Virus genome (UHGV): UHGV-2050067
Length of the DNA: 56,618 nt
Reading direction: 5' to 3' (one strand)
Origin: a virus
Shown here one piece after another: positions 1 to 56,618 of this stretch (position 1 is the first letter of the stretch; each line of letters starts with the position of its first letter). Made by a program: the position numbers and the translations under genes. The notes below the pieces were generated by a model, which was given only the letters and a program-made list of their open reading frames with translations, ran no database searches and was not told the DNA's origin.

Positions 1-362
1 AGTTTGTAGCGCATATCGTCGATGAGTTCCAACATCTGCCGCCGCTGGTGCTCTTCACGTAGTAGCTGTGCGTATCCCTTCAGGTTGGCAGCAGACGGGC
101 ACGATCGCGCCGTTTGCATTAGCGGTACGAAATTTTCATTACCAATCTCATCACCGACCAGCAATGCATCAATAAGATTTCTGTTTCTGGCTTGTGCCCG
201 GATAACTTCAAACGCACGTTTATAGAGCGGGATCGTGAACACTTCAGGATCAAGCGTGGCGAGAACATCTTGCGCGTTAGGAGTAAGGCCGCCCAACAGC
301 AGCCCGCCGATAACTGACGCTTCACGTTCCTGCCGTAGTGAGTTTATTTGCTCAGTTACCAT
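1..362 (-). CDS. replicative DNA helicase (DnaB-like), 5' portion; gene runs off the window start
   Basis: Minus-strand ATG at 362 gives [57 protein letters not shown]..., colinear with the N-terminus of the helicase ORF at 55260-56555; SD ggagg upstream. Confidence 0.7.
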
Positions 363-380
363 TATGTCATTACCTCCGGT

Positions 381-1499
381 TTACAAAATGGAATATTCAG
401 GGTAATAAACAAAGCGCCCGATCTCCCCATGATCCTGGCTGTAAATAATCACCGCTGCCATACGACGTGACCGCCAGCCGCCATTAGTTGAGTAAGCGTC
501 TTTACCCGCTAACGTGCCGTGATACTCAACAACGCCTAACGATGATTCAATCAGCCGTTGATGATGCCAGTGCCCGCAATGAGCGTAAACCGCCGCAGAC
601 TTGCCGAAATCCTCCCGCCAGTCAGATACGCAAGCCGACAATAAATTTTCTGGCTTTTTGATAGTGTGCCCGTGGTGGTAAGCGAGGAATGTTTTGCCGT
701 ACTGCGTGTGGTGGACGATAGCAGGGGACACATCAACAGTTACGCGCGGTTCGTCTTCGTAAAAAGCTGCCAGCGCAGCACGTAGCCAGATCATTCCTGA
801 CTGGTCGTGATTGCCGGATAACACCTGGATTTCTACATCCTTATGATTTAACAACATCTTCCCGACCGCCCGCCGTACCGACCGGATCGCTACATAGACA
901 AGTTTTGCATAGCGACTATCTTGATCAAGAATGTGCCCGCTTGTTGGTGTAACAGGAACCATTCCATCAGAGTGAAGCAGGTCGCCACCGAGAAGCAAAA
1001 CGGCTTTTTCAGACATCGGCGCGGCGCCCACAGCGTAGTCAAAGAAGTCATTTAACACGCGCTCAGCGATCCCAGTGTCGTAGCTCTCGCCGCATTCTGC
1101 TTTGTGAGCAAGTGCCCCGATATGCAGATCGAATACCGGATAAAGGGCCAGGCTTTTTTGGAAATCAATTTCAGGCACTGGCACAGCCTCCGCGCGTGGT
1201 ATCTCATCCGTGAAAGCGTCGCGGGCCGCTTCCATTAGCTGTTCCATTTCGTCGCGGTCACGGGCTGTTTTAATCCAGCGCATGATCACATTGCCGTTTT
1301 TATCGACTAGCAATGACTCGCCATTGACGCCAAAACCAGGCGCGCGGCGTGTTGATAATAAACCACGTTTCGCAAGTTTTGCGCCCAGACGCTCGACGTT
1401 GCGTTTTGACATGCAATATTTTTCAGCGATCTGTTTATACGTTAAACCGTTGTTATATTCAGCGATCAATTGCTCATCGCTTATCTTTCTTTGTGACAT
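381..1499 (-). CDS. N-terminal HTH fused to calcineurin-like metallophosphoesterase (NinI-like phosphatase fold)
   Basis: 372-aa ORF; metallophosphoesterase motifs DLHIG, GGDLLHSDG, GNHD, HHGH, GHWH; HTH-like N-terminus; stop 19 nt before the helicase start. Confidence 0.65.
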   Translation of the reverse strand: MSQRKISDEQLIAEYNNGLTYKQIAEKYCMSKRNVERLGAKLAKRGLLSTRRAPGFGVNGESLLVDKNGNVIMRWIKTARDRDEMEQLMEAARDAFTDEIPRAEAVPVPEIDFQKSLALYPVFDLHIGALAHKAECGESYDTGIAERVLNDFFDYAVGAAPMSEKAVLLLGGDLLHSDGMVPVTPTSGHILDQDSRYAKLVYVAIRSVRRAVGKMLLNHKDVEIQVLSGNHDQSGMIWLRAALAAFYEDEPRVTVDVSPAIVHHTQYGKTFLAYHHGHTIKKPENLLSACVSDWREDFGKSAAVYAHCGHWHHQRLIESSLGVVEYHGTLAGKDAYSTNGGWRSRRMAAVIIYSQDHGEIGRFVYYPEYSIL

Positions 1500-1533
1500 A
1501 GTGTCATTTCCTCACGAATAACAAATTGTATAC

Positions 1534-2202
1534 TTAGTTACAAGTTAAAAGCTCAGTGATCCATACTTGTCCTTTAGCAGTGAATACAGCCTGCTCATAT
1601 CCATCGTGAGTTACCCTCATTTCACCGTAGCCCTCATCAATAAACCACTGACTAAATACACGGCGGCGACAGCGAAGATCGTAAACACCAACAGCCGAAA
1701 GTTTTCTGTTTAATTTTACGGCTGACATTCCCAGCGGTTTAGCAACCTCTGAAGCCGTTCGGTGCATATCGTTTTTGACTATCGCGTCACATACAGCCGC
1801 TTTTGGCGCAAGTTCCTTATTAACCAGTGCAAGCCGTTCTTTTTCCTCAGCAAGATCGGCAGCAAGGCGCAACGCTTCGCTTAATGTTTGAGGAATTGCA
1901 GGGGCGTTTTGCTGTACCCGTTTTTCAAGTTCCTGCCAGCGGTCGATGATGCGAGCACGTAACTCAACGCTATAGCCAGATACAACCAGCAAAGAGTCAC
2001 GCTTAGTTAAAAGCCATTCCCTCTGTGTTTGATTGTTGTATCCTTTGTAAGTTACTGATTTGCTTGATTCCCCCAAATTTGGGGCAATGGCGTCAATGTC
2101 TCTCAATATGTGATCGTGCCGTTTACCAGTTAGCTTGGCGATCTCACGAGAAGACATTGTTAATACTTCGTTCGCCCCATTAAGCGCCATTAATTCAGAC
2201 AT
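1534..2202 (-). CDS. Rha-family phage regulatory protein / antirepressor
   Basis: 222-aa ORF; N-terminal SSREIAKLTGKRHDHILRDI resembles the Rha domain; C-terminal Ant/KilAC-like region. Confidence 0.65.
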   Translation of the reverse strand: MSELMALNGANEVLTMSSREIAKLTGKRHDHILRDIDAIAPNLGESSKSVTYKGYNNQTQREWLLTKRDSLLVVSGYSVELRARIIDRWQELEKRVQQNAPAIPQTLSEALRLAADLAEEKERLALVNKELAPKAAVCDAIVKNDMHRTASEVAKPLGMSAVKLNRKLSAVGVYDLRCRRRVFSQWFIDEGYGEMRVTHDGYEQAVFTAKGQVWITELLTCN

Positions 2203-2283: not shown

Positions 2284-4101
2284 TCAATGGTGAAATAAAC
2301 CTTTAACCTTGCTAAAGAATCCGTCTTCTGGCTTTTTATCGAGCCGGTACAGTAATTCTTTTACTTTGTCTTGCAATGCCATTATCAGCTTACGATAACG
2401 TTCATGATTGCGCTGTTGACGCTGTTTCAGGTCGCCCATGTACCGTTTTTGTGCTGCCCGGCGTTGCATGTTGCGAGCAATCAGTTTGTTATATCTGTCT
2501 GATAGTTGGTTATAGCCAGATTGTAAGATGTTCACATTATTTTGCAGTTCCAGTTTATCATCCTCAAGTTCTGCCACTTTAAGCTGATAGCCCTTGATAA
2601 CTAGAGCCTTGTTGCTTGCCTCCTGTTGTTGCGCTTTGATTGTTTCCTTCGCTTCTGCCAGATCTGTACGAATGTCGTTGATTGTTTGTTTGTCTGCCGC
2701 AGCTTTCGCTTTTGCGTCGTCGTTATTTGCAGCGTTGACCTTTTGTCTTAGTTCGCAATTAGTTTTAACCAGATTGTCGCGCTCACTTTCTAGCTTCTGG
2801 CGTTTACCCTGTTCGTCACCAAATGCCTTATTCGCCTTGCTGTATTGGTGTTTCCAATAATCAACGCGGAGTTGGTAGCTGTCGCGATCTTCTCTCGCTA
2901 TGTTGAGCACTCCATGTAATTCCTTGATTTGTCCCTCCAGCGTTTTTACCTGGCATTTAAGATCTCCCACCTGTTTGCTATCTGTTTGCTGCGCAATAGC
3001 CGCGCTGATAGGGTTGTCTTTAAATTTGCGAAAAGCTACTGATAAATCAACCCTGTCCTTTTCCGCTCCTATCCGTGCCACGATCATTCCTGCGATCTCA
3101 AGCGGTGCATATCCTTTTTTGATCTGCATGTCACATTGTTCAGTGCAATAAATATAGCCAGGTAATTTATTCAAGCTTTCAATGCGGTGGCGTAATTCAT
3201 CCTCATTAATACCATACGCCGCAGCAATATCCATCAGATTGATTTCATCGGCGTCATTAACGCTAATATTATGACCGTGAAATTTGAATACTCGCGGTAA
3301 CTCATGTTCATGCGGTTCCGTGTTACTTTCTTGTTTCATTTCGTCACCCTTGTAATAACGCTGTTTTATGCGCTCCGCTTCTTCTGGTGAGATATAATCA
3401 GGGAAGTGGTTCATTTGCTTACCGTAGTATCTAATTTCGCCGTTGATGCGCTCTTTTATTGCGTCGTTAATATTATCGAAATAACCAAAGCCGTGATTTA
3501 TTGTATTAACTTTAATTGTTGCTTCCCATTTATTTTTCGCCTTATTCCATAGAACGCCCTTGATACCGCTATTTCCCCAAGGCTTACGTTTTATGCCTCT
3601 TTCGCCGCGTGATATTAATTTCAGGTTTTCAATTTTCGCGCATGAATTATCGCCGTTTTCTATTACATACCCATCAGGAATAGGGCCGTTAAACATTTCC
3701 CACACAACGCGATGCAGTTGATAATAGCGATCTTTTACACCGATTTGCAAACGTTCATAATCAGTGCCTTTTTTGCATTTAAACCCGCGAATTATATCGC
3801 CTGGTTTAATACGACATTTCCCACGCCCCCTAGTCACCTTACTAATCAGAAAACCATCAGGATGATAATCAAACAGTTCAGGCCAATTTTCCGCGCACTG
3901 GCTGCAATCAGCGTACTGAATATCGCCAGCTTCCACCGCTGTTATTTCCTTCCAATAGCCACCGGCCACCATGCGTACAAACTCGCTTTCTTTACCCCAA
4001 TGATTCCACGTTTGATATTTACGCTTCCGCATAAACACCATTCCTTCATCAATTTTTGCAAACAATTTACTTCCTCTTATCGATATAAAATATCTAGACA
4101 T
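2284..4101 (-). CDS. HNH_3-like/AP2-domain homing-endonuclease-like protein with long C-terminal coiled coil
   Basis: 605-aa ORF; HRVVWEMFNGPIPDGYVIENGDNSCAKIENLKL matches the HNH_3 pattern but lacks the catalytic His-Asp; GIKGVLWNKAKNKWEATI is AP2-like; C-terminal ~300 aa heptad-rich. Confidence 0.55.
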   Translation of the reverse strand: MSRYFISIRGSKLFAKIDEGMVFMRKRKYQTWNHWGKESEFVRMVAGGYWKEITAVEAGDIQYADCSQCAENWPELFDYHPDGFLISKVTRGRGKCRIKPGDIIRGFKCKKGTDYERLQIGVKDRYYQLHRVVWEMFNGPIPDGYVIENGDNSCAKIENLKLISRGERGIKRKPWGNSGIKGVLWNKAKNKWEATIKVNTINHGFGYFDNINDAIKERINGEIRYYGKQMNHFPDYISPEEAERIKQRYYKGDEMKQESNTEPHEHELPRVFKFHGHNISVNDADEINLMDIAAAYGINEDELRHRIESLNKLPGYIYCTEQCDMQIKKGYAPLEIAGMIVARIGAEKDRVDLSVAFRKFKDNPISAAIAQQTDSKQVGDLKCQVKTLEGQIKELHGVLNIAREDRDSYQLRVDYWKHQYSKANKAFGDEQGKRQKLESERDNLVKTNCELRQKVNAANNDDAKAKAAADKQTINDIRTDLAEAKETIKAQQQEASNKALVIKGYQLKVAELEDDKLELQNNVNILQSGYNQLSDRYNKLIARNMQRRAAQKRYMGDLKQRQQRNHERYRKLIMALQDKVKELLYRLDKKPEDGFFSKVKGLFHH

Positions 4102-4502: not shown

Positions 4503-5555
4503 TCAAATAGCGCCAGCGCGTGTATCGCGTAGCGTTTTTGGTTTAAGCAGGAAATCAAGTGTCGCTGTGAAGCCATCGCCGAAGTAAAAGTCTGAAGCCT
4601 TGCTCTTGAATGCTTCAAAGTAGGCGATAAAGCCGTTAATGCTTTTGTCTTTCAGGTAGTCAGTGAACGCATAGATCTTGCGTTCAAGATCCCGGTCCAG
4701 TTCAGCAGGTGGCAACAGGCCATCAAACGTGATGTTAAACTCATTTACCACATCGGCAGCGTTTACAGTAACTGACAGATTGCGCCATTGTTCAGCATCA
4801 GCAAGATACCCATCGAATTTAGTTACCCGGCAAATGTTAACAGGCTTAGGCACTCCACCACGGCTACGCCATTGCGTCAAAGCCCACTCAATCACTAATG
4901 TGATCTCATCCTCCGTATACGCTTTACGTGTTTTTGTTTCTGTCAGTAGTTCGATGAATGGCTTCGCATCACGACATTTGCATCCTGCCTTGTCGTTGTA
5001 GAAGGCCAGGCAACGCAACGCCGCTTCGTTTACGCCATCATGATTGACCATTTTTTGTTCATTTTCGACAATACACGAAGTGTATATATCTTTTTCTCTT
5101 TCTTCTTCTACTTCTAATTCTAATTCATGACCCTTTCCTGACCCGGTCATGACCCTATCATGACCTTTTTGTGTTGGATTGATTAACTTTTCTAATTTTA
5201 ATTGCTCCTTAGCTGTGTTTATGGCGGCCCTGTACGCGCTTTTAGAAGTCATTGATTGGTCAAGCCTTTTCAATAACTTTAAACAAGTTATGTGGCCTTG
5301 AGAACATTCAAACAAACCAATTTCGATGAAGTATTTCATCATTTCTTCTATACGTTTTTCAGTCGATCCGACGTTTCGCGCAATGATTCTCGCGTCATGT
5401 CGTAGGTCAAAAGTCAGATTGTGCTGATCTACGTCATAAGTTATTAGTTCGAGGCAATACCAATAAAGCCCGTACCCTTCCAGGCCATAATCAAGCAAGA
5501 CGTTTTGAAGTTTTTCATCGCGGTTCGCATCGCTATCATGCTTAAACCACTTCAT
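4503..5555 (-). CDS. replication initiation / replisome organizer protein (O-like role)
   Basis: 350-aa ORF; N-terminus MKWFKHDSDANRDEKLQNVLLDYGLEGYGLYWYCLELI resembles the phage replisome-organizer N-terminal domain; iterons and an AT-rich tract lie inside the gene. Confidence 0.6.
   Translation of the reverse strand: MKWFKHDSDANRDEKLQNVLLDYGLEGYGLYWYCLELITYDVDQHNLTFDLRHDARIIARNVGSTEKRIEEMMKYFIEIGLFECSQGHITCLKLLKRLDQSMTSKSAYRAAINTAKEQLKLEKLINPTQKGHDRVMTGSGKGHELELEVEEEREKDIYTSCIVENEQKMVNHDGVNEAALRCLAFYNDKAGCKCRDAKPFIELLTETKTRKAYTEDEITLVIEWALTQWRSRGGVPKPVNICRVTKFDGYLADAEQWRNLSVTVNAADVVNEFNITFDGLLPPAELDRDLERKIYAFTDYLKDKSINGFIAYFEAFKSKASDFYFGDGFTATLDFLLKPKTLRDTRAGAI
5080..5166. other. candidate origin of replication (AT-rich tract plus three TCATGACC iterons) inside the organizer gene
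   Basis: tcatgaccc at 5125 and 5147, tcatgacct at 5158, preceded by tgtatatatctttttctctttcttcttctacttctaattctaattc; analogous to lambda ori inside O. Confidence 0.4.
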
Positions 5556-5558
5556 AGA

Positions 5559-5891
5559 TCATTCCTCCGGTAACATCACTACATAGACATCACTGAACGC
5601 ATCAAGACGACAAACAAACCCTTTATGCATTAACGCGGCGAAGGCATCATGTACCGTATGAACAGGAAGTTCACACATTTTTGCGATTTCTTGTCGTGAT
5701 ACCATGACGTGACGGCGGTTATCTGCCTTTTCAGCCAGAGCCATTAAGACCAGTTTTTGAATCAGGCTGTTAAGTTTTACTTTCCATACTTCGCTAATCA
5801 TGTTCATGCTCATTGTATTTTCTCCTATGGTTAAAATGAACGCGCGGGCGGGCATCCCATTAGCATTAGATAGCAGTGACTGACCGCTCAA
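5559..5891 (-). CDS. winged-helix HTH protein, first gene of the leftward early operon
   Basis: 110-aa ORF; LIQKLVLMALAEKADNRRHVMVSRQEIAKMCELPVHTVHDAFAALMHKGFV resembles HTH_36 domains of replication proteins; divergent from the CI-like gene. Confidence 0.5.
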   Translation of the reverse strand: MSGQSLLSNANGMPARAFILTIGENTMSMNMISEVWKVKLNSLIQKLVLMALAEKADNRRHVMVSRQEIAKMCELPVHTVHDAFAALMHKGFVCRLDAFSDVYVVMLPEE

Positions 5892-7376: not shown

Positions 7377-7496
7377 ATGGTTATTCAGGCGCTCCAATTC
7401 AAACTAGCAGTAGCGGAAATGCTTCACGATGCCGAAATGTGGAGCGCCGCGAATAAAGCCTTATGCATAGTGTTAACAGCGAAGGAGGCTAGTTAA
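7377..7496 (+). CDS. small ORF (39 aa), hypothetical
   Basis: ATG at 7377 preceded by SD cggaggtgacatt; stop overlaps the HNH start (taATGg). Confidence 0.3.
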   Translation: MVIQALQFKLAVAEMLHDAEMWSAANKALCIVLTAKEAS

Positions 7497-8026
7497 TGGC
7501 TTATTCAAAACATGGAATGACGCACACAAAACTTTATGAAGTTTTCAAAGGAATGAAAACGAGATGCAGGAAAAGCGATAAGAATCCAAAAAATAAACAC
7601 TATAAAGATAAAGGTATAGCCATATGTGATGAGTGGTTGAATGATTCATCAAGGTTTATCGAGTGGGCTTTAAATAACGGTTATCAGGAAGGGTTAGAAA
7701 TAGACAGGACTGATAACGATAAAGGTTACTCCCCGGATAATTGCCGATGGGTTACACATGCTGAAAACATGCGTAATACATGTAAAACCAGAATATTAAC
7801 AGTGAATGGGGAAACTAACACAATACATTATTTTTCTGAAAAATACAGTATAGGTGAGGACACCATACGTTCAAGATTACGTCGCGGCTGGAGTCATGAA
7901 GCCGCTGTACTTCTTCCTTTAAGAAAGGGGAAACGATGTGAAGAAAGATTTATACAAAAAATTGTGGCTAATTCAGCAGCAATTAAAAGCGCCAAAATCT
8001 CAACGCAACTCATACGGTGGTTATAA
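7496..8026 (+). CDS. HNH endonuclease
   Basis: 176-aa ORF; DRTDNDKGYSPDNCRWVTHAENMRNT is an HNH-type motif; strong SD gaaggagg; 3' end overlaps the erf start by about 89 nt. Confidence 0.65.
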   Translation: MAYSKHGMTHTKLYEVFKGMKTRCRKSDKNPKNKHYKDKGIAICDEWLNDSSRFIEWALNNGYQEGLEIDRTDNDKGYSPDNCRWVTHAENMRNTCKTRILTVNGETNTIHYFSEKYSIGEDTIRSRLRRGWSHEAAVLLPLRKGKRCEERFIQKIVANSAAIKSAKISTQLIRWL

Positions 8027-8590
8027 TTACAGATCAGCGGAGGACATATTAGAGGCTGTTAAACCTTTATTAGAAGGCATCACATTGACTATTAACGATG
8101 AAGTAGTGTTAATTGGCGATCGTTATTACATTAAGGCAACGGCAATATTGAGCGATGGCGAGGACGAAATAACAGTTACTGCTTTCGCTCGCGAGGAAAA
8201 AGAACAAAAAGGCATGTCGGCAGGGCAGTTAACTGGCGCGACATCAAGTTACGCGCGGAAATATGCCCTGAACGGCCTGTTCTGTATAGACGATGCGAAA
8301 GATTTAGATACTGACGCTTACGCTAAGCAGACAGGCCAACAGCCTCGCCAGCAGAAAAACCCACCAAAACAAAAAACTAATCAGAAACCACAGCAGCAGA
8401 AAGCGCCGCCAAATCCTGACGAGGTGTTAGCGCGTTTCTGTGATGCAGCAGCTAAAGCGCCGGACGAAAAGGCATTAAAAGAAATTTTTGCTAAATGCTG
8501 GAAGTTGTTGCCGGAGGGTTCTGAGCAGCGAGTGAAAGCGCAAGATTGTTACCAGATCAGGAAAAGTGAACTTAATGGGGAGATTGCTTA

Positions 8591-8591
<1 letters not shown>
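7938..8591 (+). CDS. erf: Erf-family single-strand annealing recombinase
   Basis: 217 aa, GTG start; NSYGGYNYRSAEDILEAVKPLLEG...LIGDRYYIKATA...GATSSYARKYALNGLFCIDDAKD closely parallels P22 Erf as recalled. Confidence 0.85.
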
Positions 8592-9013
<422 letters not shown>

Positions 9014-12470: not shown

Positions 12471-13010
12471 ATGAAAAATGATTTTGGAGGCAGCAGCACA
12501 CCGAAGGAAATTAAAGACCTGTGGCAGACACCTAAACCAGTTTTTAGAGGAATGGACCGCGAGTTTGAATTTGTCGCTGACGTGGCGGCAAACAAGGCAA
12601 ACGCATTAATCCCGCGATATATAACCGAAGAAATGGACACGCTTACTTATCCGTGGGGAGCGGTGGCAATGCCTGGCGAATATGTATGGATGAATCCGCC
12701 ATACTCAAATCCGGGTCCATTTATTGATAAAGCGGCGCTCGAACATCAACGGAATCACATCGGTTGCGTGATGTTGTTGCCCGCTGACATTTCTGTTAGC
12801 TGGTTTATGAACGGCGTGGAGACTGCAAACGAATGCCGATTAATCACGCGCGGGCGGCTGGCGTTTATCAATGCTGCAACAGGTAAACCAGCAAGTGGAA
12901 ACAATAAAGGGAGCTTGTTCTTGATCTGGCATCCACGATGCAGACATGAATGTATTTTCACGCAGATAACACGTAAAGAGCTATATGCAAGAGGTGCAGA
13001 AAATGAATAA
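12471..13010 (+). CDS. DNA N6-adenine methyltransferase (phage Dam-like)
   Basis: 179 aa; NPPY catalytic motif (VWMNPPYSNPGPF). Confidence 0.7.
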   Translation: MKNDFGGSSTPKEIKDLWQTPKPVFRGMDREFEFVADVAANKANALIPRYITEEMDTLTYPWGAVAMPGEYVWMNPPYSNPGPFIDKAALEHQRNHIGCVMLLPADISVSWFMNGVETANECRLITRGRLAFINAATGKPASGNNKGSLFLIWHPRCRHECIFTQITRKELYARGAENE

Positions 13011-52765: not shown

Positions 52766-52935
52766 TAGCGGTACATGACGCCCCGCCCGGTCCCCAACAC
52801 ATCAACAGGGTCCGGGAATGGAGTTCCGTTTTCCTCCCACTTTTTACGCCATGAATAGAACGTTCCCCTGCTAATTCCCCCAAGCATACGGCAGATGGCA
52901 GGGCGACTAAGAAGAATTGTTGCCGTCTTATCCAT
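52705..52935 (-). CDS. AlpA-family excisionase / transcriptional regulator
   Basis: 76 aa; RPAICRMLGGISRGTFYSWRKKWEENGTPFPDPV matches the AlpA-type HTH pattern; convergent with and overlapping the int 3' end by about 61 bp. Confidence 0.65.
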   Translation of the reverse strand: MDKTATILLSRPAICRMLGGISRGTFYSWRKKWEENGTPFPDPVDVLGTGRGVMYRYQEVMRFFDKIGLTPARDKT

Positions 52936-53594
52936 TATCTTTTCCCCGTGTATTCAACGTGTCCGATACATCCATCAATAATTGCTTGCGCCATATTGCG
53001 ATAATCGCACGTAAAATCGTTGTCACGTTTAAAGTCAATCTCTTTTGCCGCGTCTTCACCCATGACCTTAGTTGCAAGTGCGAACGCTATTTCAGCAAGC
53101 GCCTTTTCTATCGGACCAACATGAATCCTGAAAGCGCATGTCGTCCATGATATCGGCCTCTCTAAGCCTAAATCTTCCTTGCTTTCACATATAGCCCATT
53201 TATCACCAACATATTTAAATTTAACGACATCGAGAACCGTTCCGCTCGTAAGACCTACACAATCAAGCCACACACCAACAGGAGGCTTTTCGCCTGCCAA
53301 CCATTCAGTTTTTTCCGGTTGCGTTTCGCAATCATGCCGCTCATCTTCGATTAATTCATCAATGATCTCACTTTCTTTATTCATGCCGTCATCATCCTTA
53401 TTAGATAAATTAGCGTATTTATCAAATTTCCAGCTTGCAGCCATAACCGAATAAGTGCCGCCATCCGCGCGAACACCCAATAAATAGTATGATCCAAAAT
53501 TATATTCTGTGCGGCATGTTGTTACCTCAAACGATGGGTAACACTCAGGGTTAGTGCGATGGCTAATCACGCCAATTACTTTAAGTTTATTCAT
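52935..53594 (-). CDS. hypothetical protein (219 aa)
   Basis: ORF track; no motif recognised. Confidence 0.45.
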   Translation of the reverse strand: MNKLKVIGVISHRTNPECYPSFEVTTCRTEYNFGSYYLLGVRADGGTYSVMAASWKFDKYANLSNKDDDGMNKESEIIDELIEDERHDCETQPEKTEWLAGEKPPVGVWLDCVGLTSGTVLDVVKFKYVGDKWAICESKEDLGLERPISWTTCAFRIHVGPIEKALAEIAFALATKVMGEDAAKEIDFKRDNDFTCDYRNMAQAIIDGCIGHVEYTGKR

Positions 53595-53784: not shown

Positions 53785-54216
53785 TTATTGCCCCCAGCGT
53801 TTTATAAATTCCTCGTTCAACTTAGTGTCACCAGACCATTGAACATTATGTTCAGCGCCGAACGAGTAGATCAGTTCAATTAATTCGCTAAATTCTGTTT
53901 TACTCATCCGGCTGGTTGACGTTCCCAGCACAACAAAGCCGGATTTATCCAGATTAGGGACAACGCCATATTTCTTAAGCCCGGCAGTGAATACCGCCTT
54001 CCAGTCTTCCGGTGACAGCTTTTTACCGTACCAATTAACCTGATCGCTAACGTCTGTTAATAGCGCCCATAAAAGGCTGTTTTGACTCAGTGATCGTGTT
54101 TTCTCCTGGATGGTAATTATCAGCGGGCTTTTGCTATCAGGCTGGATCTCCCTTATCTGCCTGATAGCGTTTTCTTTTACGGCGTCGTTTACTATCTCAA
54201 ATCTAATTTGCTTCAT
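53785..54216 (-). CDS. ninB: NinB-family recombination protein
   Basis: 143 aa; MKQIRFEIVNDAVKENAIRQIREIQPDSKSPLIITIQEKTRSLSQNSLLWALLTDVS...GFVVLGTSTSRMSKTEFSELIELI parallels lambda NinB as recalled. Confidence 0.8.
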   Translation of the reverse strand: MKQIRFEIVNDAVKENAIRQIREIQPDSKSPLIITIQEKTRSLSQNSLLWALLTDVSDQVNWYGKKLSPEDWKAVFTAGLKKYGVVPNLDKSGFVVLGTSTSRMSKTEFSELIELIYSFGAEHNVQWSGDTKLNEEFIKRWGQ

Positions 54217-55259: not shown

Positions 55260-56618
55260 TTAAAAGGATGCGTTATTCTGGTTGTTTCGTTGGTTAAATC
55301 GACTTGTGCGATGATTCATCGACTGAATACATGCAGACGCTGCGCGGGCCTGGTCGCAAGGGAGGATATTGCCGTTGTCGTCAAATCGCTGGTAAACAGT
55401 CCCCGTTTTCCCGTGACGGTTTTTCGAAACAATGATCTCCATATATTCGCGGGCAACAGACTGTTCATCATAGTACCCGTCGCGATAGACCATGATGATC
55501 CGGTCTGCGTCCTGTTCAAGATTCCCGGAATCGCGCAGATCAGAATTATTCGGGCGCTTGTTCGGTCGTTCCTCAACGCGGCGGGATAATTGCGCCAGCG
55601 CCAACACTGGTACGCGCAATTCTTTCGCCATCATCTTCAACGACCATGACAATTGCCCTACAGCGAGATCGTGACGTTCGGCCTTAGCCAGCTTCATTAG
55701 ACCGATGTAGTCAATCATTACCATACCCAGGTTCGGGTGTTCCTGCTTCATGCGTTCCGTTGTTGCGCGTATTTCCTCAACCGTCAACTGCGACGCGTCA
55801 ACGATCCACACCTCAAGATTAGCAAGTGCGCTCATCCCCTGGCCTACATGCGCCCAACCCTCATCATCAAGTTTTACCGGATTGCGCAGGCAGTCAGTTG
55901 ATAAATTACCAGCGCCAGCGATAGCACGCTCAGTCATCTGATCGAGTGACATTTCAAGCGTGAAGAGCAAAACGCCAACCCGCTGTTCTTTACCACCAGG
56001 GTAAGGGCGTTCAGCGGCTGCGCGGGCAATTGTCAGCGCCAACGCAGATTTACCAGACCCAGGGCGTCCGGCGAGAAGTACCAAATCAGTAGCGTTAATG
56101 CCGCCCAACATTTCGTCGAGTGGTTCTATACCTGTTTTGATGTTGTCAGAATTGACACCGCATTCCATGCGCGTGCTTAAAACATCCGTATATTCCTGTA
56201 CCGCATCGCGCAACAGAACCGGAATGATCTTATCTTTCGTTACCTTCAATTTTGAATACCGGGAATCAAAATCTTTCATCGTCTCTTTGACGACCTCAAG
56301 CGTCCCCGTTTCCAGTTTGTAGCGCATATCGTCGATGAGTTCCAACATCTGCCGCCGCTGGTGCTCTTCACGTAGTAGCTGTGCGTATCCTTTCAGGTTT
56401 GCGGCAGAAGGACACGATCGCGCCGTTTGCATCAGAGGAACAAAGTTTTCATTGCCAATCTCATCGCCAACCAATAACGCGTCGATAAGATTCCTGTTTC
56501 TGGCTTGCGCCCGGATAACCTCAAACGCACGTTTGTAAAGCGGGATCGTGAACACTTCAGGATCCAGAGTGGCGAGAACATCTTGCGCGTTAGGAGTGAG
56601 GCCGCCTAACAGCAGCCC
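55260..56618 (-). CDS. replicative DNA helicase (DnaB-like); 5' end lies beyond the window end
   Basis: Walker A LLAGRPGSGKSALALT and DnaB-like C-terminal domain; reading frame stays open upstream of the track start at 56555 to the window edge, matching the longer N-terminus of the left-edge copy. Confidence 0.85.
   Translation of the reverse strand, partial: GLLLGGLTPNAQDVLATLDPEVFTIPLYKRAFEVIRAQARNRNLIDALLVGDEIGNENFVPLMQTARSCPSAANLKGYAQLLREEHQRRQMLELIDDMRYKLETGTLEVVKETMKDFDSRYSKLKVTKDKIIPVLLRDAVQEYTDVLSTRMECGVNSDNIKTGIEPLDEMLGGINATDLVLLAGRPGSGKSALALTIARAAAERPYPGGKEQRVGVLLFTLEMSLDQMTERAIAGAGNLSTDCLRNPVKLDDEGWAHVGQGMSALANLEVWIVDASQLTVEEIRATTERMKQEHPNLGMVMIDYIGLMKLAKAERHDLAVGQLSWSLKMMAKELRVPVLALAQLSRRVEERPNKRPNNSDLRDSGNLEQDADRIIMVYRDGYYDEQSVAREYMEIIVSKNRHGKTGTVYQRFDDNGNILPCDQARAASACIQSMNHRTSRFNQRNNQNNASF

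Follow-up and report, generated by a model that had tools for sequence, protein, structure and literature searches.

A helix-turn-helix metallophosphoesterase encoded beside a phage DnaB-like helicase gene belongs to a very large family with a nuclease-like catalytic domain

The HTH-MPE gene and its product

In UHGV virus genome UHGV-2050067, a stretch of 56,618 nucleotides that we call the window, a gene close to one end encodes a 372-amino-acid protein with a helix-turn-helix (HTH) region followed by a metallophosphoesterase (MPE) core (Table 1). This gene, here called HTH-MPE, runs on the minus strand from an ATG at 1499-1497 to a TAA at 383-381. Its product matched phrog_704 ('DNA repair exonuclease') with an E value of 1.4e-140, residues 4-368 aligning to profile positions 2-387 of 390, and is a further member of a known, very large phage family with a predicted function. 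Because of this match, and because homologues at 98% identity are found in E. coli prophages, the open reading frame (ORF) is a real gene and not a chance ORF.

Table 1. Positions of the features in the window (aa, amino acids; AF2, AlphaFold2 model)
Feature	Position	Strand	Basis
HTH-MPE coding sequence, 372 aa, phrog_704 family	381..1499	minus	ORF list, phrog_704 match, AF2
Shine-Dalgarno GAGG of HTH-MPE, 10 nt 5′ of ATG	1510..1513	minus	read from sequence
Three-helix HTH, aa 8-44, LuxR/GerE / sigma-70 region 4-like	1368..1478	minus	AF2; weak PDB profile matches; Pfam HTH matches in relatives
Beta-hairpin (aa 58-78, W75-x-K77) and helix (aa 82-97), conserved	1209..1328	minus	AF2, conservation
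MPE core, alpha/beta, aa 114-365	405..1160	minus	AF2
Motif I, D124-L-H126	1122..1130	minus	D124, H126 invariant
Motif II, G171-G-D173-L-L-H176	972..989	minus	G172, D173 invariant; H176 at least 90%
Motif III, G229-N230-H231-D232	804..815	minus	N230, H231 invariant; D232 at least 90%
Motif IV, H275-H276-G-H278	666..677	minus	H276 invariant
Motif V, G309-H310-W-H312	564..575	minus	H312 invariant; G309, H310 at least 90%
Spacer of 18 nt, HTH-MPE stop to helicase ATG; GGAGG at 373-377	363..380	minus	sequence
DnaB-like replicative helicase, 5′ part, truncated at window edge; ATG 362-360	1..362	minus	Pfam DnaB N-terminal domain 3.2e-13; phrog_19
Second, nearly complete copy of the same helicase gene, other window end	55260..56618	minus	translation
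Rha/KilAC antirepressor-like gene, upstream neighbour	1534..2202	minus	Pfam Phage_pRha 3.6e-17, ANT 2.2e-11
605-aa HNH-plus-coiled-coil protein gene	2284-4101	minus	Pfam/PHROG
Lin1244_N/O-like replication initiator, 350 aa, phrog_20981	4503-5555	minus	Pfam/PHROG
Small MarR/TrmB-like winged-helix replication protein, 110 aa, phrog_4617	5559-5891	minus	Pfam/PHROG

An earlier reading made from the letters alone (the sequence-only reading) had placed the end of the gene 19 nt before the helicase start. We count 18 nt, which agrees within counting convention, and the Pfam match confirmed the DnaB-like helicase. The helicase gene has its own GGAGG ribosome-binding site and therefore no start/stop overlap with HTH-MPE. 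No terminator-like site was seen in the sequence between the two genes, and they are probably co-transcribed. The upstream Rha/KilAC gene is a variable insert, missing from this slot in phages mEp013, mEp021 and MagusPhagus.

At 88-92% identity, the region matches mEp021-like (mEpimmI) temperate coliphages and phage MagusPhagus. The mEp021-like group has been published as non-lambdoid, with no discussion there of the HTH-MPE gene (PMC11893012). The mEp021-like phages and MagusPhagus carry a homologue, as do 35 of the 5,426 complete E. coli genomes; it is annotated mostly as 'hypothetical protein' and once as 'DNA repair exonuclease', and the E. coli prophage copies are still 'hypothetical protein' in RefSeq.

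An AF2 model of the protein, built on a 46-sequence alignment, had a mean predicted local distance difference test score (pLDDT) of 84 and a predicted template-modelling score (pTM) of 0.74. The three N-terminal helices (aa 8-16, 21-27 and 32-44) were modelled with a pLDDT of 88-91. For the window protein alone, Pfam HTH matches remained sub-threshold (Rrf2, 0.011; MarR, 0.023), while those of its relatives were clear (Sigma70_r4_2, 1.5e-9; GerE, 2.4e-8). Comparison of the family profile with PDB gave GerE, RhlR, DesR and FixJ, all with LuxR/FixJ-type HTHs, as top matches, each weak (E 0.017-0.9). The type of N-terminal HTH varies among relatives: HTH_1 was found in 26 and HTH_8 in 19 of 120, along with HTH_23/28, HTH_50 and others. 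Homologues in Campylobacter phages have no HTH at all and keep the core. Conservation across the whole family starts at the beta-hairpin (strands aa 58-65 and 71-78), where W75 is invariant or nearly so, and the most distant homologues align from about aa 50-58 on. The fusion of an HTH to a metallophosphoesterase, as proposed by the sequence-only reading, was thus borne out by the modelled three-helix bundle, the Pfam HTH matches of the relatives and the MPE core.

The core has the alpha/beta sandwich of the MPE fold and the complete calcineurin-like set of five motifs (DxH / GDxx(D/H) / GNH(D/E) / H / GHxH), also as read before. We analyzed conservation in an alignment of 120 representatives with 29-58% identity to the window protein. 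The key residues of the motifs were invariant or conserved in at least 90% of them (Table 1), and T184 was likewise invariant. Strong selection thus acts on the binuclear metal site. Pfam Metallophos (PF00149) did not match the window protein at E ≤ 0.1. Among the 120 representatives, Metallophos matched 25 and Metallophos_2 (PF12850) matched 20 at E ≤ 0.01, below the gathering score. The MPE assignment of the window protein therefore rests on fold and motifs, and, judged by sequence comparison, the lineage is divergent within the MPE superfamily.

Family size and gene neighbourhoods

Homologues were detected by tblastn in 2,039 of 50,697 phage records, 1,957 of which cover at least 80% of the protein. 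The phages include those of Escherichia, Klebsiella, Salmonella, Vibrio, Shigella, Campylobacter, Flavobacterium and Rhodobacter. An exhaustive HMMER scan of 1.84 billion cluster representatives returned 4,421 clusters at E ≤ 1e-3, of which 952 also passed E ≤ 1e-30; among the 150 matches listed, almost all had a length of 370-450 aa. Thus the HTH-MPE fusion, which had been called unusual, is common in phage genomes and not an oddity. The phrog_704 proteins of T1-like phages have 58-67% identity to the window protein and equal length and architecture. Compared with the phrog_704 proteins of Drexlerviridae, Dhillonvirus, Jerseyvirus/Kagunavirus and others, the window protein itself is no different; its genomic position alone differs.

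Other names deposited for phrog_704 proteins are 'putative phosphoesterase', 'HTH-type regulator/nuclease SbcD' and 'calcineurin-like phosphodiesterase'. The name 'DNA repair exonuclease' is a prediction, and full-text literature searches found no experimental work on the family. Searches of the literature on T1 host-DNA degradation and on phosphoesterase escapers in T1-like phages found nothing relevant. The window locus itself matters little, being a routine member of a family already named by annotation pipelines. The family deserves attention for its presence in about 4% of sequenced phage genomes, its near-universal occurrence in T1-like phages and its invariant catalytic residues.

For the gene neighbourhoods, we drew 101 loci from deposited phages and from IMG/VR and metagenome contigs. 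A 70% identity cutoff divided the MPE proteins into 29 clades, and clustering of the neighbours took in up to four genes on each side. Our six-frame ORF caller produced spurious reverse-frame ORFs in high-GC contigs, and only clusters backed by deposited annotation or PHROG were used.

A downstream DnaB-like helicase was confined to one of the 29 clades, the mEp021-like clade. In this clade, HTH-MPE invariably has the O-like initiator on one side and the helicase on the other. The helicase gene follows directly (+1) in 21 of 24 loci, each time after the same 18-nt spacer; in the remaining three, one or two ORFs are inserted before it, annotated, where a name is given, as an HNH homing endonuclease. 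Helicase coupling as a family trait was rejected by these neighbourhoods.

Elsewhere the gene sits in different company. In Drexlerviridae its neighbours are holin, endolysin and spanin genes, a position beside the lysis cassette that has been described (PMC13164509), and an endolysin cluster occurred within four genes in 6 clades. Dhillonvirus has lysis genes upstream and terminase downstream, and TerL was within four genes in three further clades. In Jerseyvirus and in one marine contig, HTH-MPE is found in islands inside tail modules. Genes of DNA and nucleotide metabolism recur. A polynucleotide kinase at +1 and a deoxynucleoside monophosphate (dNMP) kinase at +2 were seen in 3 clades (Drexlerviridae, a Yersinia phage and an Autographiviridae podovirus, the last also with endonuclease VII and DNA ligase flanking HTH-MPE), a dNMP kinase nearby in a fourth clade, and a MazZ-like dGTP diphosphohydrolase nearby in 3 clades. 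Neighbours found at single loci were dCMP deaminase, an HD protein, ThyX with the Pol III beta clamp, an SNF2 helicase with a methyltransferase, and NinG. What the neighbourhoods share is DNA/nucleotide metabolism and a place at the early/late boundary; they do not point to the replisome.

Three recurrent arrangements were seen in passing. The string of HTH-MPE, polynucleotide kinase/3′-phosphatase and dNMP kinase recurs across three families (locus L013, 4723-5781; locus L015, 4656-5779; Drexlerviridae clade 1), which suggests a conserved functional module; the Autographiviridae member with this string is a Gajwadongvirus, with DNA ligase next. A Rha/KilAC antirepressor-like (Ant/Rha) gene lies within two genes of HTH-MPE in 4 of the 29 clades, this window included. 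Three of these clades are otherwise unrelated in context: the replication operon here, a reverse-oriented island in the Jerseyvirus tail module (L004/L007) and a marine contig; the loci outside this window and Jerseyvirus are L020 and L101. The proximity may be due to chance, as Ant genes are common, or to a small mobile module. DNA methyltransferase genes were found within a few genes of HTH-MPE in unrelated phages, namely pSf-1, RcPutin, Flavobacterium phage snusmum, Synechococcus phage S-CBS2 and a marine contig (L003, L005, L009, L010 and L102), a possible association; the window has a methyltransferase gene at 12471-13010.

Comparison with known phosphoesterases and proposed function

A sequence search of PDB with the single protein gave no meaningful match. 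By fold, the catalytic domain is closest to the nuclease domain of Mre11/SbcD: the first five Foldseek ranks were all Mre11 entries, so that the best structural matches are nucleases, with small margins in the ranking. About 186-191 residues aligned with Mre11/SbcD structures (PDB 3qg5, 4o43, 4tug, 7dog and 6s6v), in targets of 319-400 residues. Profiles did not support this proximity. E. coli SbcD aligned with the family profile at an hhalign probability of 3%, over motif III alone, and hmmsearch E values of PDB Mre11/SbcD entries were not significant (0.16-0.9). Unlike Mre11/SbcD, HTH-MPE has no C-terminal capping domain or Rad50-binding helices but ends at aa 372, right after the MPE core, and carries the N-terminal HTH and beta-hairpin in place of these parts. 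A Rad50/SbcC ATP-binding cassette (ABC) ATPase partner was found neither adjoining the gene in the window, where the neighbours are the Ant gene and the helicase gene, nor among the conserved neighbour clusters of the 29 clades. True membership in the Mre11/SbcD family was rejected for want of profile support, capping domain and Rad50 partner. The small subunit DP1 of archaeal PolD, a 3′-5′ proofreading exonuclease (PDB 5ihe), has 13% identity to HTH-MPE, which, unlike DP1, has no OB-fold domain and no DP2 partner among the genes examined.

Stand-alone phage MPEs encoded in a replication-gene region are also found in cluster A mycobacteriophages (A10ZJ24 Gp48; Bxb1 gp47 / L5 gp54). These proteins belong to phrog_221, are about 255 aa long and have no HTH. 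Bxb1 gp47, an MPE-like protein encoded in the replication module and annotated in its record as a recombination directionality factor, has been reported to be required for phage DNA replication. Against the HTH-MPE family it gave an hhalign probability of 3.7%, with motifs IV-V alone aligned, and a common lineage with Gp48 / Bxb1 gp47 was rejected on this value and the different PHROG. Gp48 is nevertheless the closest experimental precedent, though from another MPE lineage: this nuclease is expressed early, breaks down the DNA of the host and is required for the phage to replicate in M. tuberculosis (PMC12287305). As the family is no closer by profile to SbcD (3%) than to Bxb1 gp47 (3.7%) or to lambda NinI (0.3%), it forms a separate MPE lineage whose catalytic domain is nuclease-like, outside the Mre11/SbcD family.

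From these comparisons, we infer that HTH-MPE may be a DNA-tethered, metal-dependent (probably Mn2+) Mre11-like nuclease of phage DNA/nucleotide metabolism, the best-supported mechanism, to which we give roughly even credence. It is suggested by the invariant catalytic residues, a DNA-binding module that is interchangeable across the family, the nuclease-first fold ranking and the DNA/nucleotide-metabolism neighbourhoods. The core would be a binuclear-metal calcineurin-like phosphodiesterase, most likely acting on DNA like the nuclease domains of Mre11, SbcD and PolD DP1. The N-terminal HTH, perhaps together with the beta-hairpin and its W75 and K77, would supply DNA binding and would stand in for the DNA binding by Rad50/SbcC and the capping domain of the canonical enzymes. 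HTH-MPE would be an early or middle gene and not a dedicated helicase partner. It might trim DNA ends or structures in recombination-dependent replication and concatemer maturation, or it might degrade host DNA to feed the dNMP pool.

Three other readings have to be weighed against this nuclease. The comparison with NinI of lambdoid phages did not hold up. The phage is not lambdoid, and lambda NinI (Nin221, lambda protein phosphatase, phrog_246), although it shares the five-motif binuclear superfamily and likewise comes from a temperate coliphage, has PPP-type motifs, 221 aa and no HTH. HTH-MPE has neither the GDxxDRG and GNHE motifs nor a phrog_246 match nor a single domain of about 220 aa. 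The window does come from a temperate phage with nin-like genes (NinB at 53785-54216), but a Ser/Thr/Tyr protein phosphatase of the standard NinI type is effectively refuted. One IMG/VR contig (L089) carries, four genes downstream of its HTH-MPE, a gene (8067-8780) for a NinI-like Ser/Thr phosphatase (phrog_246, 1e-44); because both occur in the same phage, the two types of metallophosphoesterase are not functional substitutes.

HTH-MPE could instead be a replisome accessory factor coupled to the DnaB-like helicase, such as a loader or an origin-processing factor. The fixed order and spacing in the mEp021-like clade would fit such a role, as would the lack of a terminator-like site between the two genes and the precedent of Bxb1 gp47. 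However, the adjacency is limited to that one clade, and the gene is far from any helicase in T1-like, Dhillonvirus, Jerseyvirus, Casjensviridae, Vibrio, Yersinia and Autographiviridae members, in some of them within tail modules. The helicase gene has a ribosome-binding site of its own, and Bxb1 gp47 is of another lineage. We therefore consider this role very unlikely. A bifunctional protein, the leading rival, is rather improbable but less remote: its HTH would bind specific phage or host operators in a regulatory capacity, possibly for late (lysis/packaging) genes, and its MPE domain would hydrolyze a small nucleotide, with a cyclic or linear oligonucleotide immune signal, a 2′,3′-cyclic phosphate, a nucleoside di- or triphosphate (NDP/NTP) or diadenosine tetraphosphate (Ap4A) as proposed substrates, making it an anti-defence or nucleotide-pool enzyme. 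Consistent with this are the gene's location next to lysis and packaging functions and the small-molecule MPEs that come close in the fold ranking, but the variable HTH type sits oddly with sequence-specific regulation of conserved targets, the HTH-less Campylobacter phage homologues keep the core, and nucleases rank first by structure. Nor was there any match to PADLOC (0 families at E ≤ 1) or to an anti-defence family. A defence-system protein was rejected on the same PADLOC result, and identity with the anti-Tmn protein of Dhillonvirus was rejected because anti-Tmn is a small rod-like protein. The sequence-only reading had suggested a nuclease- or phosphatase-type factor in replication or anti-defence, which our results support in part.

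Returning to the nuclease, a broader proposal would make the phrog_704 HTH-MPEs a distinct class of Rad50-independent, HTH-tethered Mre11-like nucleases that carry out a core step in thousands of siphoviruses and that, in the mEp021 lineage, were recruited into the replication operon. We put this forward tentatively and think it unlikely as a whole. The step might be the host-chromosome-degrading nuclease of T1-like phages, which would feed the dNMP kinase and would give rise to the methylated-dAMP signal that the Metis and PUA-Cal-HAD defences detect. Another candidate would be the destruction of host DNA or of defence signals. The papers on Metis and PUA-Cal-HAD were set aside as evidence: the MPEs there are host defence proteins and the escapers map to T4/T2 denA, so these papers say nothing direct on the HTH-MPE family. 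To know the substrate would close a gap that recurs in the maps of phage genomes, and it might reveal the nuclease behind host-DNA breakdown in T1-like phages.

Other features of the phage genome

The slot between the O-like initiator and HTH-MPE is variable, with the 605-aa protein in this window, a zinc-ribbon protein in mEp021 and three tiny ORFs in MagusPhagus. The 605-aa protein has HNH_3 endonuclease and AP2-like DNA-binding sequences near its N terminus (aa about 70-260), and its C-terminal part of about 230 aa gave weak matches, to coiled-coil-type Pfam families only; its gene is an unusually long homing-endonuclease-like insert. The replication initiator appears to be split in two (phrog_4617 and phrog_20981), with 3 nt between the parts (4503-5891).

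The window ends, 1-305 and 56314-56618, are two copies of the 5′ part of the helicase gene, identical at 278 of 305 nt. All 27 differences are synonymous, and the 101 overlapping amino acids are identical. The window therefore spans slightly more than one genome unit of 56,313 bp, with two alleles. These might come from a tandem double lysogen of related phages or from concatemer or chimeric assembly of a mixed population.

An HNH endonuclease ORF (7496-8026, phrog_3377, plus strand) overlaps the Erf recombinase ORF (7938-8591) by about 90 nt at its listed GTG start. It is probably a homing-endonuclease insertion directly 5′ of erf, and the true Erf start may be further downstream. A 219-aa ORF (52935-53594, minus strand) that lies between the integrase and NinB genes matched nothing in PHROG at E ≤ 1e-5; in E. 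coli strain 190 and in mEp013, this place is taken by a hypothetical gene.
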